Sequence record: DRR378314_1378
Direction: 5' to 3' (one strand)
DNA length: 64,000 nt
Shown here: positions 614 to 20,959 of the stretch, in pieces
Position numbering within the stretch: position 1 is the stretch's first letter
Layout of the letters: every line of letters starts with the position of its first letter
Notes under the pieces: model-generated
Told to the model about the DNA's origin: nothing
The model's database searches: none
The model's input: the letters and a program-made list of their open reading frames with translations, nothing else
Translations under genes and position numbers: made by a program

Positions 614-625
614 TTATAAACTAAT

Positions 626-5068: not shown

Positions 5069-5071
5069 ATT

Positions 5072-5977: not shown

Positions 5978-5984
5978 AGTAACC

Positions 5985-6374
5985 TTAAAAATGTTCGACT
6001 ATTTCTAATCGTTTCATTACAGTATCAACTTTTTTTGCGTTGAATGGCTTAGCAATAAAACCTTTAGCGCCGAGCTCCCAAGTATTTTGTACATTCTCTA
6101 AACTATTATGTCCGGAGCACATTACAACATGGGTGTGTGGGTAATTATCATTTAAAAATTCGAGAATTTCAGTACCATCGGTATCCGGTAACTCTATATC
6201 GAGAAAAATGACATTAGGGGATTTTTCTTTGATTAATGATTTTGCAGATTCAAAATCACGGCTTTCCAAAATATCTTCAAAGCCTAACTCAGTTAAGATT
6301 TGATTTAAGTAGTCACGAATATCTTGAACATCATCAATAATCAAAATAGGTTCGAGTGGGCGCACAAATTCCAT
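5985..6374 (-). CDS. Single-domain response regulator (CheY-like receiver)
   Basis: IIDD, FLDIELP and KPF receiver motifs. Confidence 0.9.
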   Translation of the reverse strand: MEFVRPLEPILIIDDVQDIRDYLNQILTELGFEDILESRDFESAKSLIKEKSPNVIFLDIELPDTDGTEILEFLNDNYPHTHVVMCSGHNSLENVQNTWELGAKGFIAKPFNAKKVDTVMKRLEIVEHF

Positions 6375-6566
6375 GTTGTTTACTTCTTGTGATACAGCTT
6401 AAATTGTAGTTTTAATACTATGCTAAGCGATAATGAAGCTCAAGAAAGATACCGTAATAAAACCAACTATTTGAAATAAATCATTATAATGTCCGATACC
6501 GTCTAGTATTGGACATAGAGAGATTGTTCACAGGTATAAAGCAGGTTTGTTGTGTGGCTATTTATA

Positions 6567-6594
6567 ATAACCTATAATTTATATTATGTTAAAT
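6567..6594 (+). other. dif: dif-like XerC/XerD site (attL of the DJR prophage; XerC arm probably the host's)
   Basis: ATAACCTATAA-TTTATA-TTATGTTAAAT: canonical XerD arm plus 6-bp spacer; 18 bp identical to 19494-19511. Confidence 0.9.
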
Positions 6595-6790
6595 GCGATA
6601 TAATCTGTCATTTTGTCGTGTTTCCCTTGTTGGCTTTAAATTTGGCTTGTACCCTTCATTTGCACAAGTTTTCCCGCTTTTGCGTGCGATTAACTAAATT
6701 GATTAAACCCCTATTAATCAATCTAAAAAAATCATCAAAGTTTCTTCCGCGTGGGCGTAAATCAATTACAACGTCAAAGGATAAGGAATT

Positions 6791-7264
6791 ATGACTAACT
6801 TTAAGCAGTTACTTTTTCGTGCTGGATTTATGAATTTTGGTAAGCTTGACCGTAAAGCCGCTATGCAGTTTTTACATATTAAAACTGAGCGCACGCTTGA
6901 GCGTTGGATAGCAGAAAACAAACCATGCCCCCGCGCGGTTGTCATGCTTGAACAACGCATCAGTGGCGCGGTTTCTCAAAATAAATTATGGGATGGTTAT
7001 TATATTTGTCGGGATGGCTACTTGTGGACACCCAGCGGCAAGCGCTATGAAGCAAGCTACATTAACAAAATTGATTTTTTACAGCGCTCTGTGCGTTACA
7101 ACGAAAGTAACGTTGCAGGACTTCAAGCACAAATTGACCATTTGAATGAACTCGTTAAAGCAAGTGACACCCTAAAAACAATTGGAAACGATTTAATTAA
7201 AATGAGTGACCGATTTAAACTAAAGGATATAGTAATGAAATATGGAGACAAAAAAAGAGCATAA
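6791..7264 (+). CDS. HTH + DUF3653-like protein, candidate Xer-activation factor (XafT-like) or regulator
   Basis: N-terminal HTH (AAMQFLHIKTERTLERW), then WDGYYICRDGYLWTPSG and a C-terminal coiled coil; AAGGA RBS; adjacent to attL. Confidence 0.6.
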   Translation: MTNFKQLLFRAGFMNFGKLDRKAAMQFLHIKTERTLERWIAENKPCPRAVVMLEQRISGAVSQNKLWDGYYICRDGYLWTPSGKRYEASYINKIDFLQRSVRYNESNVAGLQAQIDHLNELVKASDTLKTIGNDLIKMSDRFKLKDIVMKYGDKKRA

Positions 7265-7289
7265 ATAAAGGCCGTACATCACGGCCGCT

Positions 7290-8717
7290 TTAATTAATAT
7301 AATCTACTATGTGTTTGTACCTATTCAAAATATCAGGATTTTTCCTTAGCCTGTCCTCTAAGTCATATGATAACCACCAATCTATTTTCATATTTTTATG
7401 TCTAGCTATTTGCTTTTCCAATGCCTCGGTTAAAGCTGTAGTTATTTGAGTATTAACTACTAATAAATATCCGTCAGGCTGGTAATCAGTCAAGCATTCA
7501 AGTGATACATCAGCTCTAGCAACAGATTGTTGCTTTGATTTTTTCAATTTAGTCTTACATTGAACAATCATATTCCCAATATCTTTTGAGTTTATATGGG
7601 ATGCTCTCATGTTGTTTTTAGAATATTTTTTATCAAATGTACAGATTATGTCCCGGCCGTTATCCCCCTGTTGAGTCGGTGCTACTTTTTTAGGGCTATA
7701 AATCCATGGTTCTCTTTCTAGCAATTCTAAAGTTAGGTTTTCGAAATCCGCGCTGTCGTTCCTACAATTTATATTCCATTCAAAATTTCTATCAGAAAAC
7801 AAATAGTAGTTCTCTATGCTTCTTCGTTCAGCTAGAAGCATCAATTCTTTATTGTAAGCATGATGGCTACAATCAAACTCTAGAAATAGTATGTGTTCAA
7901 CGCCTGTTACAATCAGTATATTTTCATGTGTTATAAAATCAACAACACCTGCTTTGTGTTCAAGCTTATTAAGTATTTTCGTTGCTTTTTTCGCGCCTTG
8001 CTTTGGTATTATATTTTTAGCTTTAGAGCCATAGATTTCAATAGTAGATGAAATTCCTTCAAGGTATTTGGATTTATCACTAATTGCCTCAGATAGAAAT
8101 TTAATCATAGATGTGAACTTTGAGCTTTTGATAATGCCCAGTCCCGTTTTTAAGTCTCTAAAGTAATACCAATTAGGTTCATTACGAAAATTCAGAATGT
8201 AGTCTACTTTACGCTTCTCACCTATTATTTTTGTTGCACAATCACCCCAGTCCTTAAATGAATCCATTTCAAAGTATTGATGCTTTGCTTCATTCTCAAA
8301 TATTTCTGATTCCACCTGGTGAATAAACAGAATATCAGTGAGTATGCTATGCATTAGCTCAAAATCTTCAGGTGATAACAATCTTATTTTCTCATTCAAG
8401 GGTTGGCAAGGAAACATAGCCATACCACCTAAAACATCACCACAAAATCCTGTGTTAAGTGACATAAATCTATATGTCACCCCACTACTAACCTTTGAAT
8501 AAGAAGCTAGTAAAATAGGCAGTATAAGAGCGAAATCTTGATTGTGGTAGTCGTCAGCCTCAAAATAGCAGAAGGGTATATAAAACCCCTCCTCCTTTAT
8601 TAACTTAATCCTCCAGTGATTACAGCAGCTAAAGAATAGCTCTATATCTCCCGACTCCACACATTCCTTAATGACATACCCATCCTTTTTACATCTTTCG
8701 AGAAACTCTTGAACCAT
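7290..8717 (-). CDS. Cargo protein with C-terminal Mrr-like PD-(D/E)XK restriction endonuclease domain
   Basis: ADFENLTLELL...GDNGRDI...IVQCKT motifs; AT-rich; lies after the lysis genes. Confidence 0.7.
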   Translation of the reverse strand: MVQEFLERCKKDGYVIKECVESGDIELFFSCCNHWRIKLIKEEGFYIPFCYFEADDYHNQDFALILPILLASYSKVSSGVTYRFMSLNTGFCGDVLGGMAMFPCQPLNEKIRLLSPEDFELMHSILTDILFIHQVESEIFENEAKHQYFEMDSFKDWGDCATKIIGEKRKVDYILNFRNEPNWYYFRDLKTGLGIIKSSKFTSMIKFLSEAISDKSKYLEGISSTIEIYGSKAKNIIPKQGAKKATKILNKLEHKAGVVDFITHENILIVTGVEHILFLEFDCSHHAYNKELMLLAERRSIENYYLFSDRNFEWNINCRNDSADFENLTLELLEREPWIYSPKKVAPTQQGDNGRDIICTFDKKYSKNNMRASHINSKDIGNMIVQCKTKLKKSKQQSVARADVSLECLTDYQPDGYLLVVNTQITTALTEALEKQIARHKNMKIDWWLSYDLEDRLRKNPDILNRYKHIVDYIN

Positions 8718-8756
8718 CTTTACATCCCTTTAATACATAATATCTATATAATTCCA

Positions 8757-8912
8757 TTAATTAAGTGCATTTACTAGTGCCTCAACTAATTCATCATCCA
8801 GTTTATTGTCTGATTTTTCTGCTAGGTGCTTTGCAGTCGCTAAACACACTCTTTTTACAAAAGCCTCAGTTAGTAGTTTAACCGCTAAATATTTACCAAT
8901 TGCCGTTAGCAT
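8757..8912 (-). CDS. PM2 P18-like small lysis protein (51 aa; not in ORF track)
   Basis: MLTAIGKYLAVKLLTEAFVKRVCLATAKHLAEKSDNKLDDELVEALVNALN; last gene of late operon; GGAGG RBS. Confidence 0.65.
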   Translation of the reverse strand: MLTAIGKYLAVKLLTEAFVKRVCLATAKHLAEKSDNKLDDELVEALVNALN

Positions 8913-9055
8913 AATTTACCCTCCAGTAATTCAACTCTGTTTTCCAATTTATTAATAATGGCTTTTAGCCAGTTAATATCATTTTTTAATGTTGCGATTG
9001 TTCCCGCAGATGCAGCAACTTGAACAACAATGATTAATACCGTGTTTGTATCCAT
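8906..9055 (-). CDS. PM2 P17-like holin candidate (49 aa; not in ORF track)
   Basis: MDTNTVLIIVVQVAASAGTIATLKNDINWLK...: one hydrophobic segment plus coiled coil; translationally coupled to neighbours. Confidence 0.6.
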   Translation of the reverse strand: MDTNTVLIIVVQVAASAGTIATLKNDINWLKAIINKLENRVELLEGKLC

Positions 9056-9462
9056 TATGTTCGCGCCGCCGTTGCTATACTGTCCGCTGTTACTGCCGCA
9101 TTTAATAGCGGCCTGTAAATTGGTTTTAATATCAAATCATCGTCAAAGATTTCGTTAAAAAAACCTTCATGGTCGTCATGCGCTGCAACCATGGCTTTTA
9201 GCCAAGTCATATTAGCGATTTTGTAATTGTGGTCGAGCTTATCCCGATTAAGCACAAAGCCCGCGTTTGGGTACTTGATGTAACTACTGTCATTCACAAA
9301 GAATTGAATTTCAGCCAGTAGCTTACTAATCGGCTTTGTTACTGGCGCGATAGCTTCACGGCTTGTTTTGATAAACCGCGTTAACGCATAGTAAGCGGCG
9401 CACATGATAAAAATGGTCGGTAAATTGCGTTCGATAGTATTAACCATAAAACCCCCTTTCAA
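9055..9462 (-). CDS. PM2 P6-like virion membrane protein
   Basis: N-terminal TM segment; size and position after the P5-like gene. Confidence 0.6.
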   Translation of the reverse strand: MKGGFMVNTIERNLPTIFIMCAAYYALTRFIKTSREAIAPVTKPISKLLAEIQFFVNDSSYIKYPNAGFVLNRDKLDHNYKIANMTWLKAMVAAHDDHEGFFNEIFDDDLILKPIYRPLLNAAVTADSIATAART

Positions 9463-9910
9463 ACCCCTGTTTTATCTCTGTCATTGAATATGGGTTTTCG
9501 CCATTTTCCATGTGAATCATTGCCGCGATAACTTCGGGATAACTGTCGTCATTTAGCGGTGTATCAGGTGAAACCCCCGCCTTATGACTAACAAAATTAA
9601 TATAATTAGCGGTGTCGTTTTCGTTCTCAGGAGCCCATCGCGACACAATGCCGCTAATGGTGTTTATCTGATATTTGATAGCGTAATTCCTTAGAATACG
9701 CGCCGCAGCTCGCAAACCGTAAAACGGGGCGCTAAATACAACAAAGCGCCCGTCATCCCCCGCCATGCCTTCCCATGCGTCTGCGGTTTTTTCAATGTTC
9801 AACGGATTGTTATTGCGAATGCCGCGCGGTGCATCGCTTAATTTTGACGGGTAAAGCACAAAGCCCAAACCCGCCAGCGCAACTAATAAAGCATGTTTAA
9901 TTTTCATCAT
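9440..9910 (-). CDS. PM2 P5-like virion/lytic protein
   Basis: N-terminal TM; RGIRNNNPLNI...RWAPENENDT...HMENG motifs. Confidence 0.8.
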   Translation of the reverse strand: MMKIKHALLVALAGLGFVLYPSKLSDAPRGIRNNNPLNIEKTADAWEGMAGDDGRFVVFSAPFYGLRAAARILRNYAIKYQINTISGIVSRWAPENENDTANYINFVSHKAGVSPDTPLNDDSYPEVIAAMIHMENGENPYSMTEIKQGFERGFYG

Positions 9911-10878
9911 GCGCGCTCCTGCGTTATCTGGACAACGCCACCAATCGCGTAAACCTCATTATCCGTCCAAACTCGGTTAAAGCGTGAGTTTGCAACATCC
10001 CCATCAACCTGCCCATTCGTCCCCGACTGTTCAACCATAAAAAACCTGTGCGCGCCCGCTGACAAAGCAATTCCAGACGCACCATTCCAAGCAATCTCGC
10101 CATAAAAAGGCCCCCCACTACTCCAACCATAGTCACCCAATGCTTCCGTTGTAGGGTCGCCCACCGTATAAAACAGTTTTGGGGAGCCGCTTTGCTCTAC
10201 TAAATATTCAAGCACCACGTTAATCTTAAAGGGTACGCCGTCCATGCGGCTTGGTACAATTAAATCAAAATATGGAACGTTTAAGCTTTCAAGCTGCGAG
10301 CGCGTTAAACTTCTTCCGTATTGCCAAGGCATAACCCCGTTCTTTATTGTTCCGCTGTTTTTGAATAGCTCCTGCTCTGCGCTGTCGGTTATCCAGCACT
10401 TAACATCACCATAGGCGGTTAATTCAAACTCTTGATTTGCTTTGTATTTACGGCCATTTTGAACAACGCCCTCAACCACTTTCAAGTCTTGCCCACCTAT
10501 CCAAATATCATTATCACACTCAAGACGGGCGATAATGCGCGACGGGTCATTTTCAAGCAGATTGTAAATGCCATTACCAATGAATTCTTGTGAACCTAAA
10601 ATAGTTTGTTGACGGGTCGAGACCTGCTTAAAATCGAACGGCACTTTGCCCGCCCATATAGCCAGCTCTTGCGGTGCATCACTAACTAGTGTGACTTTAT
10701 CAAACTCAATGTCGTTTAAGCTCATGCCTTGCCACACAATCGAATCCATGACCACAGAGCCTTGCATGTATACACGAATACGTGTAACAGGCGCAGCCTT
10801 TAAAACGTGTATGCTTTTACCGTACTGATTAACTTCAAACACTTTGCCCGCAGGTAAATCACCTGATTCAAAAATCAT
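9907..10878 (-). CDS. Spike / receptor-binding protein (PM2 P1 position)
   Basis: 323 aa, beta-rich; synteny between P10-like and P5-like genes. Confidence 0.6.
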   Translation of the reverse strand: MIFESGDLPAGKVFEVNQYGKSIHVLKAAPVTRIRVYMQGSVVMDSIVWQGMSLNDIEFDKVTLVSDAPQELAIWAGKVPFDFKQVSTRQQTILGSQEFIGNGIYNLLENDPSRIIARLECDNDIWIGGQDLKVVEGVVQNGRKYKANQEFELTAYGDVKCWITDSAEQELFKNSGTIKNGVMPWQYGRSLTRSQLESLNVPYFDLIVPSRMDGVPFKINVVLEYLVEQSGSPKLFYTVGDPTTEALGDYGWSSGGPFYGEIAWNGASGIALSAGAHRFFMVEQSGTNGQVDGDVANSRFNRVWTDNEVYAIGGVVQITQERA

Positions 10879-11849
10879 TATTTGCGCCCCATAAATAAAG
10901 CTAGAATTGCAACACCACCTAAACCGATAACAATATAGGTCATTGATTTGTTGGTACTGATTGCGAGTTGTTGACCGTCTGAGCGGCTTGCATGGTCTGC
11001 AAACTGCATTGCTTGCTTATGTGCCAGAATCGTTTGGTCTCCCGCGTTATTGTACGCTTCACTGATTTTATCGACTGCACCCTCGGCCAGTGCTGCCGCC
11101 AGATTGCTGTTATTATCAATCGAGTAATAAGCTAAATCAGCCATGCCTTGATTGGCGTTTTCTATCGCACCCGTTGTGGTCAACAACGCGTTATTGGAAA
11201 AGGCTGTATTGTTGCCGTGCATATTTTCGGCGCTTTGGATGACTGCATAGGCTAAATCGCTATTTTCAGCAATGGCCGAATCAGCCAGTGCATTTTGTGC
11301 ATTGATACTATCGCTTGCCAGATTACTATTAGCCGCTAGCGCATCGGAGCCAAAACCAAGCGAACTCGCCATAATATCAAGCATCCCGCTTTGCGTATCG
11401 CGAGCAAAATCAAATGCGTTATCCTGAGCACCACCCATTGCATCAAGTACATTATTGCCAAAATCAAAGGCGTTATCCTGAGCTCGTCCCGCTGCAATTA
11501 ATGAGTCATTACCAAAGTTAAACGCCATACTTGCGTTGTCGTTGGCAAAGTCGAGCGAATCTCGATTAACATCGCTTGCAAAATCGAACGCGTTTGAAGT
11601 GACATTTTCGGTCATGTATGCGTTATCGCTGGCAATATCGCCAACGGTCGCACCCATTTCGGCTACATTGCCGTTCATATCGCCCCAAATACCTATCAAG
11701 CCATCTACTAGGCCGTGGTCTGTTTGGGTGATGTTATAAGAATTACCATTCCCGTTTGTAATATAGCCGTTATTATCACCTTCAACACCGATACTTGTAC
11801 TTGTGTTGTTAGTGGTTTGATTACTGTTAGAGCGTGATTTACTGCCCAT
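10878..11849 (-). CDS. PM2 P10-like virion protein
   Basis: Probable start MGSKSRSNS; NGNGN and TDHG motifs; A/N/D-rich repeats; C-terminal TM. Confidence 0.7.
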   Translation of the reverse strand: MGSKSRSNSNQTTNNTSTSIGVEGDNNGYITNGNGNSYNITQTDHGLVDGLIGIWGDMNGNVAEMGATVGDIASDNAYMTENVTSNAFDFASDVNRDSLDFANDNASMAFNFGNDSLIAAGRAQDNAFDFGNNVLDAMGGAQDNAFDFARDTQSGMLDIMASSLGFGSDALAANSNLASDSINAQNALADSAIAENSDLAYAVIQSAENMHGNNTAFSNNALLTTTGAIENANQGMADLAYYSIDNNSNLAAALAEGAVDKISEAYNNAGDQTILAHKQAMQFADHASRSDGQQLAISTNKSMTYIVIGLGGVAILALFMGRK

Positions 11850-12204
11850 GTAGCACCATCCTAAAAACCGCGTACCCAGACGGCGCGGTCTCAAAAAAGT
11901 TGAAATTACAATGCTTGAGTAAGCGCGTTAGCGCTGATCGCTTGGTGTGGAATAGAATTGATGTTAAGCCGAGCTTTTTAGCTAGCTTGATTACAATGTA
12001 GCTTGCTTGCTTTAGGTTTTGCCCTTGAGCACATACAACCGTCAATGAGCGCCCATCAACTCTTAAAACAAAATAAACACCGCAAATATTAACGAAACGC
12101 GAAACGCCTTTTTCAACCTCGCGTTTAACGCAGTTAAAATCAGCAAGCGAACCCGCCGCTTGCTCGATTTTGTGAAGTTCGGAAAACCGACAGAACTCAA
12201 GCAT
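11839..12204 (-). CDS. PM2 gp-j-like protein
   Basis: Position between P8-like and P10-like genes; ILFHTKR motif. Confidence 0.55.
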   Translation of the reverse strand: MLEFCRFSELHKIEQAAGSLADFNCVKREVEKGVSRFVNICGVYFVLRVDGRSLTVVCAQGQNLKQASYIVIKLAKKLGLTSILFHTKRSALTRLLKHCNFNFFETAPSGYAVFRMVLHGQ

Positions 12205-12380
12205 TATTTTTTAAGTAAAAATAAAGCAACTAAAGCCACAGCGCCGATAATCAGAATTTGATTATTATTGCTGGAACCAAAGCTAACCGAGCCACCATGA
12301 AAACCAACCTTTGCGGATTGGTCTCCCGTTCCCGAACTTGCCGCGCTTGAATTGCTGGCACTCATGCCGCCGCCACCCAT
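12204..12380 (-). CDS. PM2 P8-like membrane protein (58 aa; not in ORF track)
   Basis: MGGGGMSASNSSAASSGTGDQ...GGSVSFGSSNNNQILIIGAVALVALFLLKK resembles PM2 P8 as recalled. Confidence 0.75.
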   Translation of the reverse strand: MGGGGMSASNSSAASSGTGDQSAKVGFHGGSVSFGSSNNNQILIIGAVALVALFLLKK

Positions 12381-12493
12381 TACACCGCCGCCTTATCTTT
12401 ACGCATGTATTCACGGACTTTTTCAGCAACGATTGCACCGATTGCCGCGATTGCCACAGCGTAAGCAAACGCTTTTAAGCCTTTTTTACTCAT
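12380..12493 (-). CDS. PM2 P4-like small membrane protein (37 aa; not in ORF track)
   Basis: MSKKGLKAFAYAVAIAAIGAIVAEKVREYMRKDKAAV; start and stop overlap both neighbours. Confidence 0.65.
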   Translation of the reverse strand: MSKKGLKAFAYAVAIAAIGAIVAEKVREYMRKDKAAV

Positions 12494-12876
12494 GATTTCG
12501 CCACCTTTAAAAGAACGCTCACAGCAAGCAACCCACCAAATGCCAGAATAACTTGTTTTTGAGGGAACCCGAACACCATCACTTCGGCTGGTTTTGCAGA
12601 TTGTGCAACCGGTGTTTTTGGTGTATCAACCATCACCGCCGCGCCGTTTTCAAATTCAACGTTGTTTTCATCGTCAATGCGCGCTTGGCCTGTCGATTTT
12701 TTCATTGCTTGAATTTGCTCATACTGCCCGTAAAGGTTTAACGCATTGCCGAGCGCATTATTTACACCACCCGTAAAATTGCCCCATGCTGATTGTTGCG
12801 GCATTACTGCGATATTATCAATCGCATTGGAGGCGGCGGCATTAGCCGCACCCCCTACTGCACCTAAATTAAACAT
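12490..12876 (-). CDS. PM2 P3-like membrane protein
   Basis: Directly after the capsid gene; C-terminal TM. Confidence 0.6.
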   Translation of the reverse strand: MFNLGAVGGAANAAASNAIDNIAVMPQQSAWGNFTGGVNNALGNALNLYGQYEQIQAMKKSTGQARIDDENNVEFENGAAVMVDTPKTPVAQSAKPAEVMVFGFPQKQVILAFGGLLAVSVLLKVAKS

Positions 12877-12884
12877 GCAACCCC

Positions 12885-13694
12885 CTAGAATGAGCTTTTA
12901 GCGTAATCATCAAAGTAGTGAACAACAACCTCGGCGGGCCCAGTTGCCCCCACATCAAGACGCAAGCGCATATCATTGATAAGTGGGTCAAGCATTAGGC
13001 CGCCGAACACATCACCATCAAGCATCAAGTCAATCGCGTGAACACCCGCTTGTGGTTTTCGCCCGTTTTGCTTAAGGATATGGTCGTGCAGGGCTTTCGG
13101 GATGTTATCGCGCCACTTGATATTATTTACTAAGAACTCAGACGAATTGATGTTCGGGTGTTTGATTTCAATAAGTGCAATATACGCACCCACTGGGCGC
13201 GGTAAATCCGCAACCTCTTGAACACCTTCAACTAGATTCATTCGGAATGAGCGACGCTTAAATAACCAGCTCGGCGCAGTCGGTGCGGCCTTTTCGCAGA
13301 ACGCTTTAATGACTGGCGCGGTTGCAGCTTGGTCAATATCAAACTTGATTTGACACAACTTAATGCCCGCAGTACCCAAACCAAAAAAGCGCTCTACAAC
13401 TAAATCAGGTTTCACAGGGCTGCGAACTTCTGAGCGTGCAAAGTGCATCGTTGCATAGCCCGCTAATTTTTCGCGGTTGAAATAATCGTTTTCTTTCAAT
13501 AAATCTTCAAGCGTTGCGTATTCTGTTAGTGTACGACCGTTAATTTCTACCTTAACGTTTTTGATTTGTGCCGCAGTAACGCCCGTAAATAAAAAGTGTA
13601 TTTTTTCATACGTTGCGTTTACTGGTAATGAAAGTGAAGCAGTACCGCCAGCGGTAACGCCTGTAATATTGTTAAGTGGTGAAATCTCGCGCAT
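12885..13694 (-). CDS. Double jelly-roll major capsid protein (PM2 P2-like)
   Basis: 269 aa; GVTAAQIKNVKVEINGR, CQIKFDID, APSWL and ADLPRPVG match PM2 P2 segments as recalled. Confidence 0.93.
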   Translation of the reverse strand: MREISPLNNITGVTAGGTASLSLPVNATYEKIHFLFTGVTAAQIKNVKVEINGRTLTEYATLEDLLKENDYFNREKLAGYATMHFARSEVRSPVKPDLVVERFFGLGTAGIKLCQIKFDIDQAATAPVIKAFCEKAAPTAPSWLFKRRSFRMNLVEGVQEVADLPRPVGAYIALIEIKHPNINSSEFLVNNIKWRDNIPKALHDHILKQNGRKPQAGVHAIDLMLDGDVFGGLMLDPLINDMRLRLDVGATGPAEVVVHYFDDYAKSSF

Positions 13695-13704
13695 GAGCTA
13701 CCCC

Positions 13705-13812
13705 TTAACCTAAAACAATGCGTTTTACTGGACGGGCAGCGCGAACATTTGAAAGAACCGCCAAAATTGCAAGCGTAACGCCCACAGGGATTAAAACTTT
13801 TTTATCTAACAT
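13705..13812 (-). CDS. PM2 P7-like small membrane protein (35 aa; not in ORF track)
   Basis: MLDKKVLIPVGVTLAILAVLSNVRAARPVKRIVLG; AGGT RBS; directly upstream of the capsid gene. Confidence 0.7.
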   Translation of the reverse strand: MLDKKVLIPVGVTLAILAVLSNVRAARPVKRIVLG

Positions 13813-13878
13813 GATTTGATACCTAATTTAATTAAAGGCGCGATTGCCCGTTAAAATTCGGTATTCAATAAATCAATC

Positions 13879-13944
13879 ATTTCGCTCTTTCGTCCAACGG
13901 ATTTCGCTCCCCCTATAGCGAAAAGAGCGAAATTTCGCTCTTTT
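13879..13944. promoter_or_regulatory. Operator cluster upstream of the structural operon (TTTCGCT repeats and a 24-bp perfect palindrome)
   Basis: ATTTCGCTC at 13879 and 13901; AAAAGAGCGAAATTTCGCTCTTTT at 13921-13944. Confidence 0.6.
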
Positions 13945-13946
13945 AT

Positions 13947-14171
13947 TTACTCAACATCAATGAAAACCCCTATCTTCAACCCTAGATGCTCTGCTATTTG
14001 ATCAGCTCTTTCTACTGTTAACTTAGCTTTTCCACTCATAACTCGGCTAAAACTGGCTTGTGATATACCAATTTTTTTCGCTATTACTTCACCTTTAATT
14101 CCCTTTGCTTTCCTTTCCCTTTCAAGTGCAAACCTCAATAAATCAGCCAAGCCTACATCTCGAATATTCAT
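13947..14171 (-). CDS. XRE-family HTH transcriptional regulator
   Basis: IAKKIGISQASFSRVMSGK helix-turn-helix. Confidence 0.85.
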   Translation of the reverse strand: MNIRDVGLADLLRFALERERKAKGIKGEVIAKKIGISQASFSRVMSGKAKLTVERADQIAEHLGLKIGVFIDVE

Positions 14172-15001
14172 TGACCGCCCCGCAAATCATTAAAGGTTAT
14201 CTTTTTACATTCGCCTATGAACTTTGATTTTTTATCAACGTTTATCATGTAGGGTTCAATATTTCCTATTCCGCCGCGCGATTTAACAAGATAATAAAGC
14301 CGCTCATCTTCATACTCTGCGTTTTGCTTACTTAGCTGTATTACGTCCGCTATTTCTGCATCAAGTTCGACTGATATTAACTTTGCATCATGGCGGGATT
14401 CTTGAGCGCCTAACACCTTGCGTGGACTGTTGTTCCATATCGTTTTTGGCACTTCCTGCGAGCGCTGAAAGATGGTGTGAAGGATTAAGCCAAATTTGCG
14501 GCCACCTGTAGCCATTTCGCCTATTATGGTGTCATCTTTACCCGCAGTACTGGCAAGCTTTGCAAGCTCTTCAATGATTACGTGCAACTCCCTGTTACCA
14601 TCTGTTGCCGTCCACATTACCTGTGCAAACCAATGAAGCTCAGCAACGCGGGCATCTTTCAGTTTTGAGCCTTTTAAGGCGGGGCTGAATTGCGGTGAAT
14701 ACGCAACAATGAACTTTTTACCACTTCGCCATGCAGCAGCGAACGCTTCCACGAATTTCGCTCTTGTTTGGTAGTGGTAAACAGGTCGGTTGTTAATGCC
14801 ATTGAACGGGGAGTTTTTGCGGCCATCGTATTTATAATCACCGTACATGTCGAATATGGCTACATGCTCACCTACTAAACCAAGTAGCTTTACGGCGGTT
14901 GTTTTACCGCCGCCAGTACCCGCCAGATAGCAAACATGTTTTGCTTTAAGTGAATTGTTTTCATTAACTGGCACTAATAGTAACCTCACCGCTTTGGTCA
15001 A
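14168..15001 (-). CDS. FtsK/HerA-type genome-packaging ATPase (PM2 P9-like); start codon uncertain
   Basis: AGTGGGKT Walker A, VIIEEL Walker B, GRKFG and FQRSQ motifs. Confidence 0.85.
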   Translation of the reverse strand: MTKAVRLLLVPVNENNSLKAKHVCYLAGTGGGKTTAVKLLGLVGEHVAIFDMYGDYKYDGRKNSPFNGINNRPVYHYQTRAKFVEAFAAAWRSGKKFIVAYSPQFSPALKGSKLKDARVAELHWFAQVMWTATDGNRELHVIIEELAKLASTAGKDDTIIGEMATGGRKFGLILHTIFQRSQEVPKTIWNNSPRKVLGAQESRHDAKLISVELDAEIADVIQLSKQNAEYEDERLYYLVKSRGGIGNIEPYMINVDKKSKFIGECKKITFNDLRGGQ

Positions 15002-15611
15002 ATTGCATGTTAGATTTAGCAGCCTTTTGAGCTTTTAAATCTTCCGCTTTTTGCATGTTAATTTGCTTATAAATTGATAGCCCCGCCATTGCGAGAACAC
15101 CGAATAATTCCAATTCTTCACGATAGCGAATTAGCCACGGTGGGAGCGTTGCGCCTTTGGTGTATTTCGCCAGCACTGGCACGGCTTTTTGTGCAATGAC
15201 TTGCTTTGTGTCGTGGTCGATAGTAACGGGAACGCTAAACATTGATTCAACAAAACCAGCCCCCGTATCAACAAAGAACCCAGCAGCAGCGGCGGTATCT
15301 TCTTCGCTCATTTTCTGTGTTTCGGTTTGCTCTATTTGCTCGCCTGTTTCGCTTTGTGTTTGCGTGGTATTTGCTTGCTGTGCAAGTGCATCGAGTTCGG
15401 CGTATTCTTCATGTAAATTTTGCTCAAACGGAACACCCACATTAATCTCGCTAGCTTGCTCTGATTCCTGCGATTGCTGCAAGTCCTGTGATTGCACCGA
15501 AGATGAAGAATCCGAACCCATTCGTAGCCCCTCCATCGCTTGTGCAACTAGTGTTTTTTTCGGTGCTGTTTGTGTTGTTTCGCTCATTATTTTCGCTCTC
15601 TTTAATTTCAT
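14964..15611 (-). CDS. Hypothetical phage protein (Q/E/S-rich N-terminus, hydrophobic C-terminal segment)
   Basis: Lies in the operon upstream of the ATPase; likely start at MSETT. Confidence 0.55.
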   Translation of the reverse strand: MKLKRAKIMSETTQTAPKKTLVAQAMEGLRMGSDSSSSVQSQDLQQSQESEQASEINVGVPFEQNLHEEYAELDALAQQANTTQTQSETGEQIEQTETQKMSEEDTAAAAGFFVDTGAGFVESMFSVPVTIDHDTKQVIAQKAVPVLAKYTKGATLPPWLIRYREELELFGVLAMAGLSIYKQINMQKAEDLKAQKAAKSNMQFDQSGEVTISAS

Positions 15612-15942
15612 TGTTAACGCTCTGTATCGCTTGTATTACTTCGGGTGGCTGCCATTCATCCGCTTTAATTTCGCTTGGAATTTGCGGGGTGTTTAGTGGT
15701 TGTGCAATTTCGCTTTCAATAGCGGAATTTTCGCCCATGTTTTGCCCTATGGCTTTTTCCCATTTCGCCTGTAGTTTCGCCCCACTTCGTTTATCCATTC
15801 CGCAGTTTGGGCAGTGTAAATATAAATATTGTTTACCCGTTTTTTGTCGGCGAATAGCTGCGAACCCGCCGCAAGCGTCACACTCACAAGCACCTAAATC
15901 AGGATTGCTTGATTTACCTTTAACCGCCATACTCACCCCCAT
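15451..15942 (-). CDS. Zinc-ribbon protein with C-terminal TM (PM2 P14-like activator candidate)
   Basis: CECDAC...HCPNC cysteine pairs; position after the replication gene. Confidence 0.55.
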   Translation of the reverse strand: MGVSMAVKGKSSNPDLGACECDACGGFAAIRRQKTGKQYLYLHCPNCGMDKRSGAKLQAKWEKAIGQNMGENSAIESEIAQPLNTPQIPSEIKADEWQPPEVIQAIQSVNNEIKESENNERNNTNSTEKNTSCTSDGGATNGFGFFIFGAITGLAAIAGIRAS

Positions 15943-16135
15943 TAATTAACTCGTCTAAATCACAAAGCCTTAAAACACGTTCAACGCTCTCAATCCGTGA
16001 ATACAATTCATCAAAACAGGCGATTGCATCATCAATTGCACCCTCAGCCATTTCGATTTTTTTACCCATTTGCAAAGCGCCGAGCTTTTTAGCTTGTTGG
16101 ATTTTTTCTTTTGCGGCGGCTAGTTTTTTACTCAT
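15920..16135 (-). CDS. Small hypothetical protein (PM2 P13 position)
   Basis: Coupled to the replication gene stop; coiled-coil-like. Confidence 0.5.
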   Translation of the reverse strand: MSKKLAAAKEKIQQAKKLGALQMGKKIEMAEGAIDDAIACFDELYSRIESVERVLRLCDLDELINGGEYGG

Positions 16136-18038
16136 AATTAATTGTCTCTTGATGTAATTGGTTATTTCTAACCTTAAATTGTGTGATTGTTCTTAGTGCT
16201 GCATCATCTTCATAGTAAGTTGCACCGCGTAGAACGCTGTTTCTTATCTCTTGAGGTATTAAAGCGATGGGATTCAACCTATCACCCGCGCCTATTTGCC
16301 AATCATTAGCGGGGTGGTTACAGTTATTTTCAGTGCTCCAAGTAGCGCCGCTGTCGCGACTTTTAAGAGAAAAACGCGCGTCACGCGTTGTTAAAAGGCG
16401 AGATTTAAAAACCTGTGTAATACCTACAGTTCGCTTTTTTTGCTCCCCGTACTCGTTAACCCCATCACCCACACGGGAAATTTGAAAAGGCCTTTCAGTA
16501 CGCTTTGCAAACGCACCACCCATAAGATGAATAAACCGCGCAAACTGTGAGTTATCAGCAGCCTTGAAAACTTCACGGAGTCGCTTAGAGCCTCGGCCAA
16601 CTCGCTCAGTTTTTGCGCGTCTAAACTCACGCCATAAACCAACACTTGCACCACCAACAAACTGAAATTGACGAATGCGCCAACGACTAGCCCAAGCACC
16701 CACATTAAGCACAAGGCCACTTTCACTATTAAATTCATTACCTGTTTCATTGTCTGTTTCACCCTCTACATGATTTGCATTAATGTTTTTTGAAATATAT
16801 TTAGCGATATAACCCACCGCCGAACTTTTTGAAGAATCTATTTTTTCAGCAGTAAAACGCGCTTGCTCTGCGCCTTTTTCGTCACCGTCCACTTGCATTG
16901 CATATTGTTTAATTGTGTTTGTTGTTGCTTGTTCATCCTTTGGTAGCATGAACAAAAGCATGTGCCAGTGTGGTGTAGCGTCATGGTGTGGCTCAACAAC
17001 GCGAACGCCAAAAACAGGAACGCCCGCCTTTGCTAATTCGGCGCGGACTTTTGCCCACTGATTAACTAAAAAGGCTTGTGTTTCTTTCGGGGTCGCATTG
17101 TTGTATTTTTTGCTGTTTGCGTGGTATTTACTCGGCGCGGTAATGGTATAAAACACAGCATTCATACCTTGCGTTTCTGCATATTCTTCATAACCCCGAA
17201 TACGTACCATTAATTCAACGCGGCGAATCTCTGGATTAGAAACCGACCCCTTGAACACCTCAGCCAAGTCGAGAATGGTTTCGCCGTCTTCGCTTTCAAG
17301 TTGCATTGAATCCAACCATTCCTGCTGGGATTTTTTGGCATAACGAAATTCATTAACGGCCTGTAATGACGCGTAAGGGCTGTTTTTCTTATTCACTAAG
17401 CCAAGAGTTATGTTTAAGTGCTCTAAGGTCATATCACGCATTCTATTAAGCTTGCGTAGCCACCACTTATCACAACACATGCGCTTAATGGCTATTTCTA
17501 ATTTATCCGCCATTAATTCACTATTGCCGCCCTTTTCCATAAACGTTTGGAACACCGACCAAGCGGGGGCGGTTTCGAGCTGGCTAACAGTAAATTCAGC
17601 CAATTTTTTATAGGTGGTTAATACAAGTGCGGTGGCCTGTGCAAGCGTCATATCTTTATCAAATGTGATAATGCTTTCTTGCTGGCAAACTAGCGCTAAT
17701 TGCTTTGCTTTATCGCGGCGGCATTTTTCACGTTGCAATTCAGTGATTGATAATGGTGAACGGGCCACTATTTCATTTACGCGCTTTATTAGTTCGCGTA
17801 AATAAATATTAGCGCTGCGCTCTGGATTTTTGGCTGTAGCGGAATTAAAGCGGGCGGCGTAAGTCTTTGCGGCGTGGCGGCGCAGGTAAGTGGTAGGTAT
17901 GTTTTTTAGTTGCTCTTTGACGTATTCAGCAGCTTTATCAAACCCAAATGCAGGAGAACAAAACGGCACAGGGCGGACTAACTCAATTGGTTTCAGTCCG
18001 CCTTTTACTGGTTCGTATGCAATTGGTAAACTACGCAT
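16128..18038 (-). CDS. Rolling-circle replication initiator, P2 gpA-like HUH endonuclease
   Basis: FYTITAPSKYH, EPHHDATPHWHML and GYIAKYISKNI (YxxKY), W...WRIRQFQF motifs. Confidence 0.92.
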   Translation of the reverse strand: MRSLPIAYEPVKGGLKPIELVRPVPFCSPAFGFDKAAEYVKEQLKNIPTTYLRRHAAKTYAARFNSATAKNPERSANIYLRELIKRVNEIVARSPLSITELQREKCRRDKAKQLALVCQQESIITFDKDMTLAQATALVLTTYKKLAEFTVSQLETAPAWSVFQTFMEKGGNSELMADKLEIAIKRMCCDKWWLRKLNRMRDMTLEHLNITLGLVNKKNSPYASLQAVNEFRYAKKSQQEWLDSMQLESEDGETILDLAEVFKGSVSNPEIRRVELMVRIRGYEEYAETQGMNAVFYTITAPSKYHANSKKYNNATPKETQAFLVNQWAKVRAELAKAGVPVFGVRVVEPHHDATPHWHMLLFMLPKDEQATTNTIKQYAMQVDGDEKGAEQARFTAEKIDSSKSSAVGYIAKYISKNINANHVEGETDNETGNEFNSESGLVLNVGAWASRWRIRQFQFVGGASVGLWREFRRAKTERVGRGSKRLREVFKAADNSQFARFIHLMGGAFAKRTERPFQISRVGDGVNEYGEQKKRTVGITQVFKSRLLTTRDARFSLKSRDSGATWSTENNCNHPANDWQIGAGDRLNPIALIPQEIRNSVLRGATYYEDDAALRTITQFKVRNNQLHQETINYE

Positions 18039-18297
18039 CTATTAAAAGCGCCGCCCAATCGCACATTGCACCATCTAATAAATGCCCTTCTTCATGCTGT
18101 CCATTATCATGCAGGCAATCAACCAAATCACAAATTAACTCAATTTGCTCGGCGGTAGGCTTTACGTTTAACTCAATCGACTTACCAATTGATTTGCGCC
18201 AACCTCTCGACAACTTAACGGCCACAGCAGATAAAACAATGTGAGCTGTCGCAACGGTAAAATCAAGACCGCCTGTTATGCCTTGCGCTTCATTCAT
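18031..18297 (-). CDS. Hypothetical early phage protein
   Basis: Translationally coupled within the early operon. Confidence 0.55.
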   Translation of the reverse strand: MNEAQGITGGLDFTVATAHIVLSAVAVKLSRGWRKSIGKSIELNVKPTAEQIELICDLVDCLHDNGQHEEGHLLDGAMCDWAALLIDA

Positions 18298-18518
18298 AAC
18301 GTCACCATTTTAGATTGCGTTGCGCGAACTAAAGCGCGGCGGCGCAGCTCGTCATTTTCGACCGGTGTTTTGATTTGCTCTTTGATTTGATTTTCGCGGG
18401 CAAGCTCTGCTTTTTTATTTTTAAATGCAAGCTTTAGCTGTGCAGCTTTGCCACGCGCATAATCCCAATGACTTTCACTGGACTTTAATTCGGTTATTTC
18501 AACTTTATATTGGCTCAT
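18294..18518 (-). CDS. Hypothetical early phage protein
   Basis: Translationally coupled within the early operon. Confidence 0.55.
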   Translation of the reverse strand: MSQYKVEITELKSSESHWDYARGKAAQLKLAFKNKKAELARENQIKEQIKTPVENDELRRRALVRATQSKMVTL

Positions 18519-18520
18519 AG

Positions 18521-18892
18521 TTAAATAACCTCGCGTAATTTTTCAACCAATCCGCAACCAATACCAATCCTTTCGGGGTTTGAGTCTTGGAAATCTACAA
18601 AAGTATTAAGGCGCTCTTTGGCTGTTTTAATGTGCTCTTTTACGTGCTCTGTTTGAACTTGTTTCTCAAGGCATGATAGATAACCAATTATTGCGGCTAT
18701 GCTTGCTTGGTCTTTACCTCTGAACACAATCACTGGTTCATCTTCTGGTATCCAGTAGCCACCGTTATGACTCCAGATTCTACTATTTAAAAAACAGTAT
18801 TTAGGGTCTTGATTTGGTGTTGGTAGTGGGCTTGGTGCTGGGGTATTCCAGTCTGCATTTTTAACTGGTCTTAGTGTTGTTGCGCTATTCAT
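18521..18892 (-). CDS. Hypothetical early phage protein (first gene of early operon)
   Basis: AAGGTGA RBS; DEPVIVFRGKD motif. Confidence 0.6.
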   Translation of the reverse strand: MNSATTLRPVKNADWNTPAPSPLPTPNQDPKYCFLNSRIWSHNGGYWIPEDEPVIVFRGKDQASIAAIIGYLSCLEKQVQTEHVKEHIKTAKERLNTFVDFQDSNPERIGIGCGLVEKLREVI

Positions 18893-18939
18893 AAATCACC
18901 TTTGGCATTGGTAAATTGATTCGTTCACTTTGGCTTAAT

Positions 18940-18975
18940 AAAAAAGCGGTTACTGTATATTTAAACAGTAACCGC
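18940..18975 (-). terminator. Intrinsic terminator in the leader of the early operon
   Basis: Perfect 11-bp stem GCGGTTACTGT/ACAGTAACCGC followed by T6 on the minus strand. Confidence 0.75.
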
Positions 18976-19042
18976 CAAGCCAAAGGACATGGTTAACAGG
19001 CGGTTAAGCTTGTTGAAATGGATGATAGACCACGCAGCGCCA

Positions 19043-19086
19043 CCTAGTCTACATCATGCCATCTAGTGCATATCATGTGGACTAGG
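19043..19086. promoter_or_regulatory. Inverted-repeat operator in the divergent promoter region
   Basis: CCTAGTCTACAT-N20-ATGTGGACTAGG (1 mismatch) between the repressor and the early operon. Confidence 0.5.
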
Positions 19087-19129
19087 ACTATAATCAAAAA
19101 AGTGACATGCCAAGACGGACACAAAACGT

Positions 19130-19408
19130 ATGAAAATAACGAATTCATTTGAGCTTTTAGAATGGTTTAAAAGCACCGCCGATATTGACTCTGATTACAT
19201 GGTTAGTAAATTGACTGGCATATCAAAACAAACGCTTAGCCATGTAAGAACTGGCGACCGTGATTTTTCAGAAACTATATCGTTGCAACTTCTTTTGATT
19301 GCTGAACACCCTGAACCCTTAAAAACACTGGCTTTAATAGAGGCTGACAAGGCGGAAAAGAAGGGTAAGCCAGAGGTGGCTAAAATGTGGCGTAAAAGTG
19401 CAGCTTAG
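19130..19408 (+). CDS. DUF3693-like HTH repressor candidate
   Basis: SDYMVSKLTGISKQTLSHVRTG HTH and C-terminal EADKA...W; divergent from the early operon. Confidence 0.7.
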   Translation: MKITNSFELLEWFKSTADIDSDYMVSKLTGISKQTLSHVRTGDRDFSETISLQLLLIAEHPEPLKTLALIEADKAEKKGKPEVAKMWRKSAA

Positions 19409-19483
19409 ATGAAAACTACCCCCGACATTTTGTCGGTCTCGTTTTGTGAAAATGCCCGCCCCGCGCGGGTTGTAAGCGTATGT

Positions 19484-19511
19484 TATGCTTACGATTTATA
19501 TTATGTTAAAT
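19484..19511 (+). other. dif: dif-like XerC/XerD site (attR; XerC arm probably phage-derived)
   Basis: TATGCTTACGA-TTTATA-TTATGTTAAAT. Confidence 0.9.
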
Positions 19512-19528
19512 AAGATAAATTAATAACC

Positions 19529-19533
19529 ATAGC
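19529..19533 (+). repeat. 5-bp target-site duplication ATAGC (left copy)
   Basis: Immediately precedes TGTAAG; identical to 63978-63982. Confidence 0.9.
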
Positions 19534-19746
19534 TGTAAGGGGTTGTTCATTTCTAGAATAATGATGATATGAGGATTTTCGCCCTCGTCTTTTGGAAAAG
19601 CCCATTATTACTGGGTTTGGTGAACCATGAGCGCAAAATTAAGTAAATTCGGATTACGCTTGGTTTTAGACGAAACCTGTTCAAACTGACTCATTCCCCG
19701 ATCATTCCTGCTCATTATACGTTTAGAATTAGATCATTCCTGATCG

Positions 19747-19796
19747 TTTAACTTTCCTTTAAATACACTTTAAACGCCTTTTAAACGCTATTTAAA
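19747..19796. repeat. TTTAAA array, 11-bp period (left end)
   Basis: TTTAA(A/C) at 19747, 19758, 19769, 19780, 19791. Confidence 0.85.
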
Positions 19797-19815
19797 TATT
19801 TTGAGCTGCCGATGT

Positions 19816-20958
19816 TTAAACTTTTTCGGCAGCTACAATTGTATTGAACGTTGGGCCTAGCTCTACGGTGATCATAAAACCTTGATACGATATTTTTACT
19901 TGGTTGCCTATATAAGCAAATGTATTTGGATTTTGAACAGCGTTCATTAGTTCGTGTATTTGCTCAATTGCTAGTTGGCCAGTTAAAAACTTTTCAATTT
20001 GAGCGCTGCTGACTGTAACAGCGCTACTATATATAGGTGCGTTTTTACGTGACAACTCGTTTAGTAAATTTACAGGCAAGTGCCCTAACGTAAATTGCTG
20101 GCTATCTGGTACCGACTTTTTAAGCGCTAACTTTGCTGCTTGTAAGTTTACCTGCTTTATATAGTACTGCTGAGATTTTAAAACTGCTTCGTTAAATTGT
20201 GGTACCGCTAACTTTTGAATGTCAGTTGATAACGTCATAACTGATTTACCCGCTGCAATGTCTGCACCTAGCCATGCTTTACCAGGATTATAATCCCAAC
20301 CCAAATCAATGCCTGGTAACTTACTCAGTTCTTCGCCTGTTGATGGGTCTACCACTTTAAAAGACTCAGTAAACTTTTTAACTGCTTCTGGCTTAGTTAC
20401 TGATAATCCCATGCGTGCAATATCACGCGCATTAAGTGATACCACCTTACACCTGCAGTTATAACCATTTGGCGGATAATGTGTATCCCAAAACGGATGA
20501 TCTACAGGCAGTAAAATGTAATTCCACTTACCGTGTTCAGGTCTTACACGGCTATCACCAGCTGTTAAGTATAATAAATATGGCCTGCGCTCTTTTAAAC
20601 GTTCTTGTTGTTGCCAACGGCCAGCTGCACGCGCAGTGTTTTTATTGTTTTGATATATAACTTTAGTACGCCAGCCCCGTTTGCCATTGTATGACCAACC
20701 GTGATCATCAACTATTTTGTCAAAGCGCTTTCTAAAGTCCGATATTGTCTCGCCATCACTAATCGCTTTATCTACTGCTTTATATAGCTCGTTTATAATT
20801 TCGATTTGTGTTGCACCGGCAACGGTAAATGCTTTGGCGTGAACTAAGCCTTGTAAGTCTTTATATGACTCACTAGTAAGCTTAATTTTGTCTTTGAAAT
20901 GAGAAATGGCTTCCTTGAACTTAACAAGGTCGCCATATTGTGGAGCTGGTAAGGCCAT
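19816..20958 (-). CDS. Mu gp30 (F)-like minor head morphogenesis protein
   Basis: AFTVAG, DSRVRPEH, YPPNGYNCRCKV and GWDYNPG motifs. Confidence 0.9.
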   Translation of the reverse strand: MALPAPQYGDLVKFKEAISHFKDKIKLTSESYKDLQGLVHAKAFTVAGATQIEIINELYKAVDKAISDGETISDFRKRFDKIVDDHGWSYNGKRGWRTKVIYQNNKNTARAAGRWQQQERLKERRPYLLYLTAGDSRVRPEHGKWNYILLPVDHPFWDTHYPPNGYNCRCKVVSLNARDIARMGLSVTKPEAVKKFTESFKVVDPSTGEELSKLPGIDLGWDYNPGKAWLGADIAAGKSVMTLSTDIQKLAVPQFNEAVLKSQQYYIKQVNLQAAKLALKKSVPDSQQFTLGHLPVNLLNELSRKNAPIYSSAVTVSSAQIEKFLTGQLAIEQIHELMNAVQNPNTFAYIGNQVKISYQGFMITVELGPTFNTIVAAEKV

Positions 20959-20959
20959 A

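Follow-up and report, generated by a model that had tools for sequence, protein, structure and literature searches.

We report that a 64,000-nt stretch of DNA from record DRR378314_1378 (hereafter the window) contains, at positions 6567–19511, an intact-looking temperate corticovirus. We read it as a circular double-stranded DNA (dsDNA) genome of 12,917 bp integrated at dif, the Xer recombination site, of chromosome 1 of its host by the recombinases XerC and XerD (XerCD) with an XafT-like protein as helper. We put the probability of this reading as a whole at roughly 80% and hold its helper part with lower confidence than that.

The element is bracketed by two copies of an exact 18-mer, ATTTATATTATGTTAAAT, on the + strand at 6577–6594 and 19494–19511, which delimit the 12,917 bp. 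With up to two mismatches allowed, the 18-mer is matched twice in the window versus 0.05 matches expected, and two or more matches occur in none of 100 shuffled sequences. A de novo repeat listing of the window returns the same pair (repeat family D12). Each copy belongs to a 28-bp dif-like site. The two 28-mers are identical in the 6-bp central region and the 11-bp XerD arm, whereas the XerC arm differs, the right-hand arm being equal to that of the host at 4 of 11 positions.

The host belongs to Pseudoalteromonas, and the left-hand site, although its XerC arm is unusual, is the true dif of chromosome 1 in this genus, because it is syntenically conserved, nearly unique and about 180° from dnaA. 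Specifically, the flanking host gene (4055–5068), used as a query, recovered 39 loci, all from Pseudoalteromonas (best, L001, 99% identical), and the six closest loci (L001–L006) carry A[TC]A[ACG]CCTATAA-TTTATA-TTATGTTAAAT at the syntenic position. The 24-mer of the left site is present around the flanking gene, with at most four substitutions, in 31 of the 39 loci. The left site has a single exact copy in each of two whole genomes, G001 and G002; another contig of G001 holds a copy with two mismatches. Furthermore, in three complete chromosomes of relatives, the distance from dnaA to dif amounts to 50.7%, 51.4% and 48.9% of the circle, and the dif1 of Pseudoalteromonas has been placed roughly opposite ori1 (PMC7858055).

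Empty sites are found in two close relatives. The L001 sequence is 99.06% identical to window positions 1–6594 and continues directly with positions 19494–19533, and is thus an empty site lacking exactly the element. The sequencing runs examined (23) are represented by contigs. In one of these contigs, from another isolate (run X5), the sequence jumps from 6576 to 19494, a gap of 12,917 nt, and the joint has 18 letters in common. The G+C content is 0.43–0.47 in the interval from about 9 kb onward, versus 0.31–0.40 in the left flank.

The right-hand site can be attributed to the phage, because the free genomes of the three sequenced Pseudoalteromonas corticoviruses, PM2 (AF155037), Cr39582 (NC_042121) and GXT1010 (MK424903), bear the same arm. 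In each of them the site lies between orf c and orf a, and TTTATA-TTATGTTAAAT is preceded by an XerC-side arm that reads CGTGCTTACGA in PM2, TGTACTTACGA in Cr39582 and TGTGCTTACGA in GXT1010. The phage arm nnnnCTTACGA is also present in L099 and in five IMG/VR contigs, one of which has CTTACTA. When L099 and four metagenomic contigs other than PM2 or Cr39582 are added to the tally of independent sites, the inner 7 bp read CTTACGA in seven of eight phage-type sites and CTTACTA in the eighth, and the outer bases vary. Such constancy of the inner arm beside variable outer bases argues for a functional, protein-bound arm over drift. Close capsid homologues are found on four IMG/VR contigs, of which one (L099) has an attP-type site under the filter applied; the remaining three contigs may end at a cut border or belong to another type.

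A six-way alignment of attL and attR with the L001 empty site and the attP of PM2, Cr39582 and GXT1010 shows that attL joins the host left flank to the phage right flank and that attR is the reverse. A reciprocal exchange inside the shared 18 bp has therefore left attL as a perfect dif and attR as a perfect attP, and the circular form of the genome is implied by this structure. The locus is thus a clean natural example in which each of the four sites can be seen: attP in free phages, attB in a 99%-identical relative, and attL and attR in the window itself. The original prediction, which proposed two dif-like sites sharing the 18-mer with different XerC arms (ATAACCTATAA versus TATGCTTACGA), integration at dif, and a specific attP, is borne out at each of these points: the host dif, conserved in position, forms the left site, the predicted attP matches the dif-like site of the three free phages, and the comparison with empty-site strains that it suggested yields L001 and run X5, each lacking exactly the 12,917 bases.

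The element encodes no recognizable recombinase. No integrase, resolvase or transposase Pfam family is matched at E ≤ 0.01 by any of the 38 open reading frames (ORFs) of at least 60 amino acids (aa) in 6567–19511, in agreement with the claim of the original prediction that a recombinase gene is lacking. Several ORFs have no family, and the 163-aa ORF at 15451–15942 gives a weak match to phrog_95 'integrase' (E 0.0012, 18.5 bits) and none to a Pfam recombinase, so one could imagine that an unrecognized enzyme of the phage itself (the 123-, 163- or 215-aa protein, or the HUH replication initiator) integrates it and that dif identity marks only the target. We regard this as highly improbable: none of the ORFs resembles a tyrosine or serine recombinase in size and motifs, the crossover falls within a site identical to the host Xer site over 17 bp, as is the habit of Xer exploiters, and the same module is found in filamentous Xer-exploiting phages (PMC12715192).

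Apart from the sites, the element has the gene content of a corticovirus (Table 1). We accepted 24 ORFs as genes and compared them by tblastn with PM2, Cr39582 and GXT1010; 20 of the 24 match GXT1010 and 15 match PM2, in conserved order. The element has the P2 capsid domains, a P9-type ATPase and the PM2 gene order from the replication initiator (Rep) to the lysis genes, which places it among the PM2-like viruses (Corticoviridae, Vinavirales). The full PM2-syntenic virion module that had been proposed is thus present. In addition, the five small genes that the original prediction described as missing from the ORF track (35–58 aa; 8757–8912, 8906–9055, 12204–12380, 12380–12493 and 13705–13812) have corticovirus homologues: all five match GXT1010 at 52–79%, three match PM2, and four match a PHROG. 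The replication and lysogeny genes are near those of PM2 (Rep 80%, orf a 77%, orf c 70%), while the virion genes are nearer to GXT1010; in particular, the major capsid protein P2 is 44.6% identical to that of PM2 (269/269 residues) and 66.5% identical to that of GXT1010. Three genes have no counterpart in PM2, Cr39582 or GXT1010: the 475-aa cargo gene, the 74-aa helix-turn-helix (HTH) gene and the 123-aa ORF.

The PM2-homologous genes are all open and of near-PM2 length, and both recombination sites are intact. These features speak against a fixed remnant, that is, an element once integrated via dif and now unable to excise or form particles, as does the 99%-identical relative that lacks the element, which indicates that the acquisition is recent. 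The related phage phiCAH24 is moreover induced spontaneously at high titre (bioRxiv 10.64898/2026.02.19.706829). The contigs of run X1, with the integrated form only, are what a remnant would give; on balance we judge a remnant quite unlikely.

We infer that host XerC and XerD perform the exchange, and a candidate helper is encoded beside the site. The orf a homologue starts 196 nt past the XerD arm, and of the IMG/VR loci, 14 include upstream DNA; in 13 of these a Xer site precedes the orf a homologue by 196–218 nt. These IMG/VR sites carry the phage-type arm in circular genomes and the host-type arm in prophages; TTTACG is the centre of some of them, a hint at variants directed to a second type of dif. 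Both the Pfam DUF3653 model and the NCBIfam VC1465_fam model (Xer recombination activation factor) are matched by 25 of 25 aligned members of the orf a family, and no other DUF3653-like protein is found in the window. In TLC-phi, XerD is bound by XafT and activated without the need for FtsK, and DUF3653 genes are found clustered around dif (PMC6744903); XafT also aids the synapsis of imperfect sites (PMC9226527). Because orf a is a remote XafT relative at a fixed place by the site, and XafT activates XerD, we favour XerCD recombination with an orf a helper, and suggest, from this remote homology, that the orf a protein may work like XafT of TLC-phi. A complex prediction for the orf a protein (alignment A2) with XerD of G001 gave a score of 0.00 and counts neither way.

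The closest Xer-exploiting model is TLC-phi rather than CTX-phi or VGJ-phi. In integration of the CTX/VGJ type, XerC would exchange first, replication would resolve the Holliday junction, and the DUF3653 protein would have no part in recombination, being for example only a regulator. Both arms of the VGJ-phi attP are canonical, and its centre is non-homologous to dif on the XerD side. In the element studied here, by contrast, the centre is that of the host dif (TTTATA), so that both exchanges are possible, and the XerC arm is degenerate, a poor basis for an XerC-first path. In CTX-phi, two inverted dif-like sites come together in single-stranded DNA and form attP as a hairpin, whereas no second inverted dif-like site for such a hairpin was found: the inverted XerD-arm 11-mer is absent within 6567–19511, and the 11-mer, with at most one mismatch, is found there only at the two flanking sites. 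The fixed distance of the DUF3653 gene from the site also argues against a CTX/VGJ-type reaction. It is favoured by the reliance of CTX-phi and VGJ-phi on basal XerC activity (PMC9226527), by the lack of a demonstrated recombination role of PM2 orf a in the literature examined, and by the sub-threshold homology between orf a and XafT, and we consider it unlikely. The original analogy with CTX, VGJ and TLC is thus closest for TLC-phi, on account of the remote DUF3653 homologue by the site, and fails for CTX, in the missing hairpin partner, and for VGJ, in the centre that equals dif.

Several observations weigh against integration by XerCD with an orf a helper. The orf a protein scores 21.6 bits against DUF3653, below the cut-off of 22.4, and 34.1 bits (E 2.2e-8) against VC1465_fam, for which the cut-off is 70. 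The attP design is the reverse of that of TLC-phi, with a perfect XerD arm and a degenerate XerC arm, so the order of strand exchange may differ from that of TLC-phi. Neither a circle nor attB was seen in X1, the only run with the whole stretch and probably its source, whose contigs show the integrated form and do not test excision. The host genes were seen only in a relative, the near-identical G001, which encodes XerD (394.6 bits, cut-off 329.6) and a second, XerC-like Xer-type recombinase (270.8 bits). To these may be added the weak 'integrase' match of the 163-aa ORF. Moreover, experimental Xer dependence of a corticovirus was not found in the literature examined, and for Vibrio tailless prophages at dif, many of them with integrases, Xer dependence has been called inconclusive (PMC11630473).

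On the preferred reading, attP (TATGCTTACGA-TTTATA-TTATGTTAAAT) would recombine with the host dif (ATAACCTATAA-TTTATA-TTATGTTAAAT) within the common 18 bp, in an exchange catalysed by host XerC and XerD. The DUF3653 protein of orf a would activate XerD independently of FtsK and would perhaps stabilize the synapse with the imperfect XerC arm; any order of strand exchange proposed for this reaction is likewise conditional. Because both sites stay whole, the reaction should run backwards in excision, after which the P12-type Rep, the P2, P1 and P3–P8 virion genes and the P9 ATPase would yield PM2-like particles. The view of the element as an intact temperate corticovirus relative using host XerCD, with which this study began, therefore stands as regards the full genome and the integration at dif; the use of Xer is probable, and the idea had already been published.

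Indeed, the kind of phage and its mode of integration are in print, and the corticovirus itself adds little novelty, because Vibrio dif-type prophages of the double jelly-roll (DJR) group, the PM2 dif site and phiCAH24 have all been described. Krupovic and Bamford described PM2-like prophages and named CTX-phi as a recombinase-less phage that uses XerC/D (PMC1950889). Kalatzis et al. (2023) proposed XerCD integration for NO16 and pointed out a presumptive 28-bp dif site in PM2 (PMC9966536), which has the same sequence as the PM2 attP found here. Ma and Zhang (2025) reported 'dif-type' DJR prophages in Vibrio, 12.9 ± 1.0 kb long (n = 140), with a module of P16/RstR, P15/XafT and attP and with cargo hot spots (PMC12715192). 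[quoted passage not shown]

The element studied here shares with phiCAH24 the host genus, the phage group, an 18-bp flanking repeat within dif and a site opposite the origin. It differs in being known from sequence alone, whereas induction, particles and naive-strain integration were shown for phiCAH24. We set the two side by side by the published description of phiCAH24; they may be different species or close relatives, and the supplementary data of that preprint or of Ma and Zhang might include this very element. PM2, Cr39582 and GXT1010 agree with it in gene order and in the position of attP between orf c and orf a. They are 10.1–10.6 kb long versus 12.9 kb here and lack the three extra genes, and the virion module of PM2 is divergent. 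Like the element here, the Vibrio dif-type DJR prophages and NO16 ('Asemoviridae') have no integrase, dif-like flanks with 17 bp common on one arm, a size of about 12.9 kb, a module of repressor, XafT-like regulator and attP, and a variable cargo slot (PMC12715192; PMC9966536). They differ in host genus and dif sequence, and the capsid protein is only about 31% identical to that of NO16.

TLC-phi of Vibrio cholerae likewise has a DUF3653 factor beside attP (by remote homology here) and regenerates dif, and it uses host XerCD at dif in a fully reversible manner (PMC6744903, PMC9226527), as we infer XerCD use for the present element. Unlike it, TLC-phi is a satellite filamentous phage whose attP is degenerate in the XerD arm and good in the XerC arm; here the degenerate arm is that of XerC and the XerD arm is the host's. 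In addition, XafT of TLC-phi has an HTH domain, whereas Pfam finds none in the orf a protein of the window.

The corticovirus group has dsDNA, and PM2 was described, and has long been taught, as a lytic phage. The element supports the view that the PM2 group is temperate and resides at dif, an incremental gain for a kind already described. It also points to an attP design opposite to that of TLC-phi: the XerD arm is perfect, and the XerC arm, though degenerate, is conserved.

Table 1. Coordinates of recombination sites, corticovirus genes and the adjoining prophage in the window
Feature	Position	Strand	Remarks
attL, regenerated host dif	6567-6594	+	ATAACCTATAA (host XerC arm), TTTATA (central region), TTATGTTAAAT (XerD arm)
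PM2 orf a homologue, DUF3653/XafT-like, candidate Xer activation factor	6791-7264	+	77% identity to PM2 orf a
Cargo gene, 475 aa, in variable slot between gp l and orf a	7290-8717	-	GC about 0.34; candidate Mrr-type (PD-(D/E)xK) nuclease
gp l homologue, 51 aa	8757-8912	-	71% to PM2 gp l
gp k-position gene, 49 aa	8906-9055	-	59% to GXT1010 3007-3153
P6-like virion protein	9055-9462	-	40% to PM2 P6; pair P6/P5 matches phrog_20312 and phrog_873
P5-like virion protein, lytic-enzyme-type PHROG match	9440-9910	-	53% to PM2 P5
Spike protein P1	9907-10878	-	Spike_JR2 56.4 bits, Phage_spike_P1 34.1 bits; 30% to PM2 P1 over 8-323
orf j homologue	10878-11894	-	32% to PM2 orf j
121-aa gene common to GXT1010	11839-12204	-	66% to GXT1010 11832-12179
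P8-like, small membrane/structural	12204-12380	-	51% to PM2 P8
P4-like, small membrane/structural	12380-12493	-	71% to PM2 P4
P3-like, small membrane/structural	12490-12876	-	40% to PM2 P3; Pfam PM2_P3 42.8 bits
Major capsid protein P2	12885-13694	-	Pfam P2_N 82.2, P2_C 77.9 bits (cut-offs 25)
35-aa gene, position of PM2 gene annotated 'structural protein P7' (PM2 5406-5510)	13705-13812	-	71% to GXT1010 10220-10324
74-aa HTH_3 regulator	13947-14171	-	Pfam HTH_3 36.7 bits; weak NCBIfam RstR match, 22.4 bits (cut-off 80)
P9-type packaging ATPase	14168-15001	-	70% to GXT1010; 31% to PM2 P9 over residues 125-223; phrog_2666; DUF87 24.6 bits
Three genes at PM2 orf h, P14, P13 positions	14964-15611, 15451-15942, 15920-16135	-	52-54% to GXT1010
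P12-type replication initiator (GPA family)	16128-18038	-	Pfam Phage_GPA 392.3 bits; 80% to PM2 P12
orf e-like	18031-18297	-	44% to PM2 orf e
orf d-like	18294-18518	-	39% to PM2 orf d
123-aa ORF	18521-18892	-	No match in corticoviruses, Pfam or PHROG
PM2 orf c homologue, HTH DNA-binding regulator adjoining attP	19130-19408	+	70% to PM2 orf c; phrog_4441, E 2.5e-23
attR, copy of attP	19484-19511	+	TATGCTTACGA (phage XerC-side arm), TTTATA, TTATGTTAAAT
KS10-like transposable (Mu-type) prophage, not part of the corticovirus	19534-63977		44,444 bp; ends TGTAAGGGG... and ...GGCTTACA

The cargo gene is possibly a defence gene. Its product has no Pfam, PHROG or NCBIfam match, and Pfam remains empty at E up to 5; there is a weak PADLOC match (PDC-M58A, E 5.7e-5), and an atlas feature search gives 0.97 to clusters in which 83% of members have Mrr_cat, which serves as a lead only. 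By tblastn the gene has no homologue in PM2, Cr39582 or GXT1010; the same slot holds a different gene in GXT1010 and none in PM2. Among the smaller genes, the gp l and gp k-position pair matches phrog_402 and phrog_37192, the region of the orf j homologue and the 121-aa gene matches phrog_20836, and the P8-, P4- and P3-like group matches phrog_8911, phrog_37720 and phrog_19558. The 35-aa gene has no Pfam or PHROG family, and the 74-aa HTH_3 regulator has no tblastn match in the three corticoviruses. The genes at 14964–16135 are probably late-gene regulators and unknowns; the 163-aa ORF among them has a weak Pfam match to Lar_restr_allev (E 0.0011).

The DNA to the right of the element is not plain host sequence: the Mu-like prophage begins 22 bp past the XerD arm of attR. 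Compared with the empty sequence of L001 and X5, the prophage has ATAGC duplicated at its flanks, a target duplication of 5 bp. Its genes specify Mor, GemA, a CI-type repressor and a 965-aa fusion of MuA/MuB type, along with F, the portal, the terminase and proteins of the head and of a siphovirus-type tail. The nearest sequenced relatives, KS10 and TJ1, are arranged in the same way, F again being at the left end. The MuA-like transposase and MuB-like ATPase form one 965-aa frame at 30985–33882 (-), which matches phrog_310 and phrog_296, and are two adjacent genes in KS10.

A search of 140 Pseudoalteromonas genomes with the left-end DNA matched 32 and returned 30 loci, 27 of which have the end motif followed by an F homologue. 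This same order of left end and then F, in the 27 loci and in KS10 and TJ1, led us to reject an inversion or misassembly of the prophage, which might be suspected from its packaging genes on the - strand and head and tail genes on the + strand. In 20 of the 27 loci, the exact XerD arm is present in the same orientation 20–375 bp upstream, at 20–35 bp in 11 of the 20. Three of the remaining loci have the arm at 0.9–1.3 kb, two have none within about 1.4 kb, and three of the 27, one of them also among those with the arm at 0.9–1.3 kb, sit behind the apparent right end of another copy. The XerD-arm 11-mer occurs only 6–9 times per genome, so this proximity is far from chance. The sites beside the phage have the centres TTTATA, TATATA and TTTACG, and spacers vary between species. 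Between species that are about 55% identical in the flanking gene, the phage DNA is 92–96% identical, which argues for repeated horizontal insertion and not one old event. Among 401 genomes sampled across the family, the left-end-beside-dif pattern was found in one, and that one is a Pseudoalteromonas.

A third exact XerD arm, TTATGTTAAAT, is present in inverted orientation at 63911–63921 (-), 56 bp inside the right end and beside a repeated TTCTAAA(A/T)T motif, a putative transposase-binding repeat. We rejected this arm as the boundary of a Xer-integrated element, for it lies inside the Mu-like prophage, whose ends are set by the 5-bp duplication. The inverted arm is kept in the window and six other genomes. 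A seventh shows it with one mismatch, and the copies in G024 lack it; the last 1 kb of KS10 and of TJ1 contains no XerD-arm motif at up to two mismatches.

Tn7 with TnsD and the res-site-hunting Tn5053 family offer comparable target selection. We propose that this Pseudoalteromonas lineage of Mu-like phages inserts non-randomly by the XerD arm, with the same end toward dif, and that XerD or an XerD-bound site is the target selector; we see the chances of this proposal as about even, and the mechanism by which XerD or its site would act as selector is speculative. If true, the dif of the genus is exploited in two unrelated ways, by Xer recombination (the corticovirus) and by targeted transposition (the Mu-like phage), and dif targeting would be both a new site choice for a transposable phage and a new use of the Xer system. 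We found no description, in the literature searched, of a dif preference of a transposable phage; Duhaime et al. described Mu-like Pseudoalteromonas phages, and the accessible part of their paper does not mention dif (PMC5498523). The adjacent dif-seeking transposable phage is more novel than the corticovirus and is the part that deserves follow-up.

Besides the window, G030 has the 5-bp duplication, and so does G007 if three extra bases belong to the end. A simple 5-bp duplication was not seen in G008 (L043/L050), which has a 25-bp direct duplication with the two ends on different contigs, or in G002 (L045/L052), where the 5 bases of one side are the reverse complement of those on the other.

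Other occupants are found at dif in the genus. Whole or partial homologues of orf a (DUF3653) lie beside dif in L010, L019, L029, L031, L032, L035 and L036, all from other Pseudoalteromonas species, and within the fetched DNA L010 alone among these seven loci has a corticovirus capsid gene. The Pseudoalteromonas dif region appears to be densely occupied by Xer exploiters and what remains of them. L058, L059, L062, L065, L072, L076, L114 and L119 have dif-like sites of a second family, with the centre TTTACG and the arm CCCATAA or CCTATAA. Such TTTACG-centre sites are used by orf a-bearing elements and by the Mu-like phage alike, and may represent the dif of the second chromosome.

The motif TTTAAAC-N4-GTTTAAAC has 12 loose copies in the window (repeat family D1), all of them in the Mu-like prophage (for example 30962–30990, 52792–52842 and 63795–63871) and mainly between genes and near the right end; it may be a binding site for a regulator or the transposase. 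Over window positions 19494–21000, contigs of run X8 show both the Mu-occupied junction and unoccupied sequence past 19533, with no corticovirus, and this run may represent a mixed or polymorphic culture.

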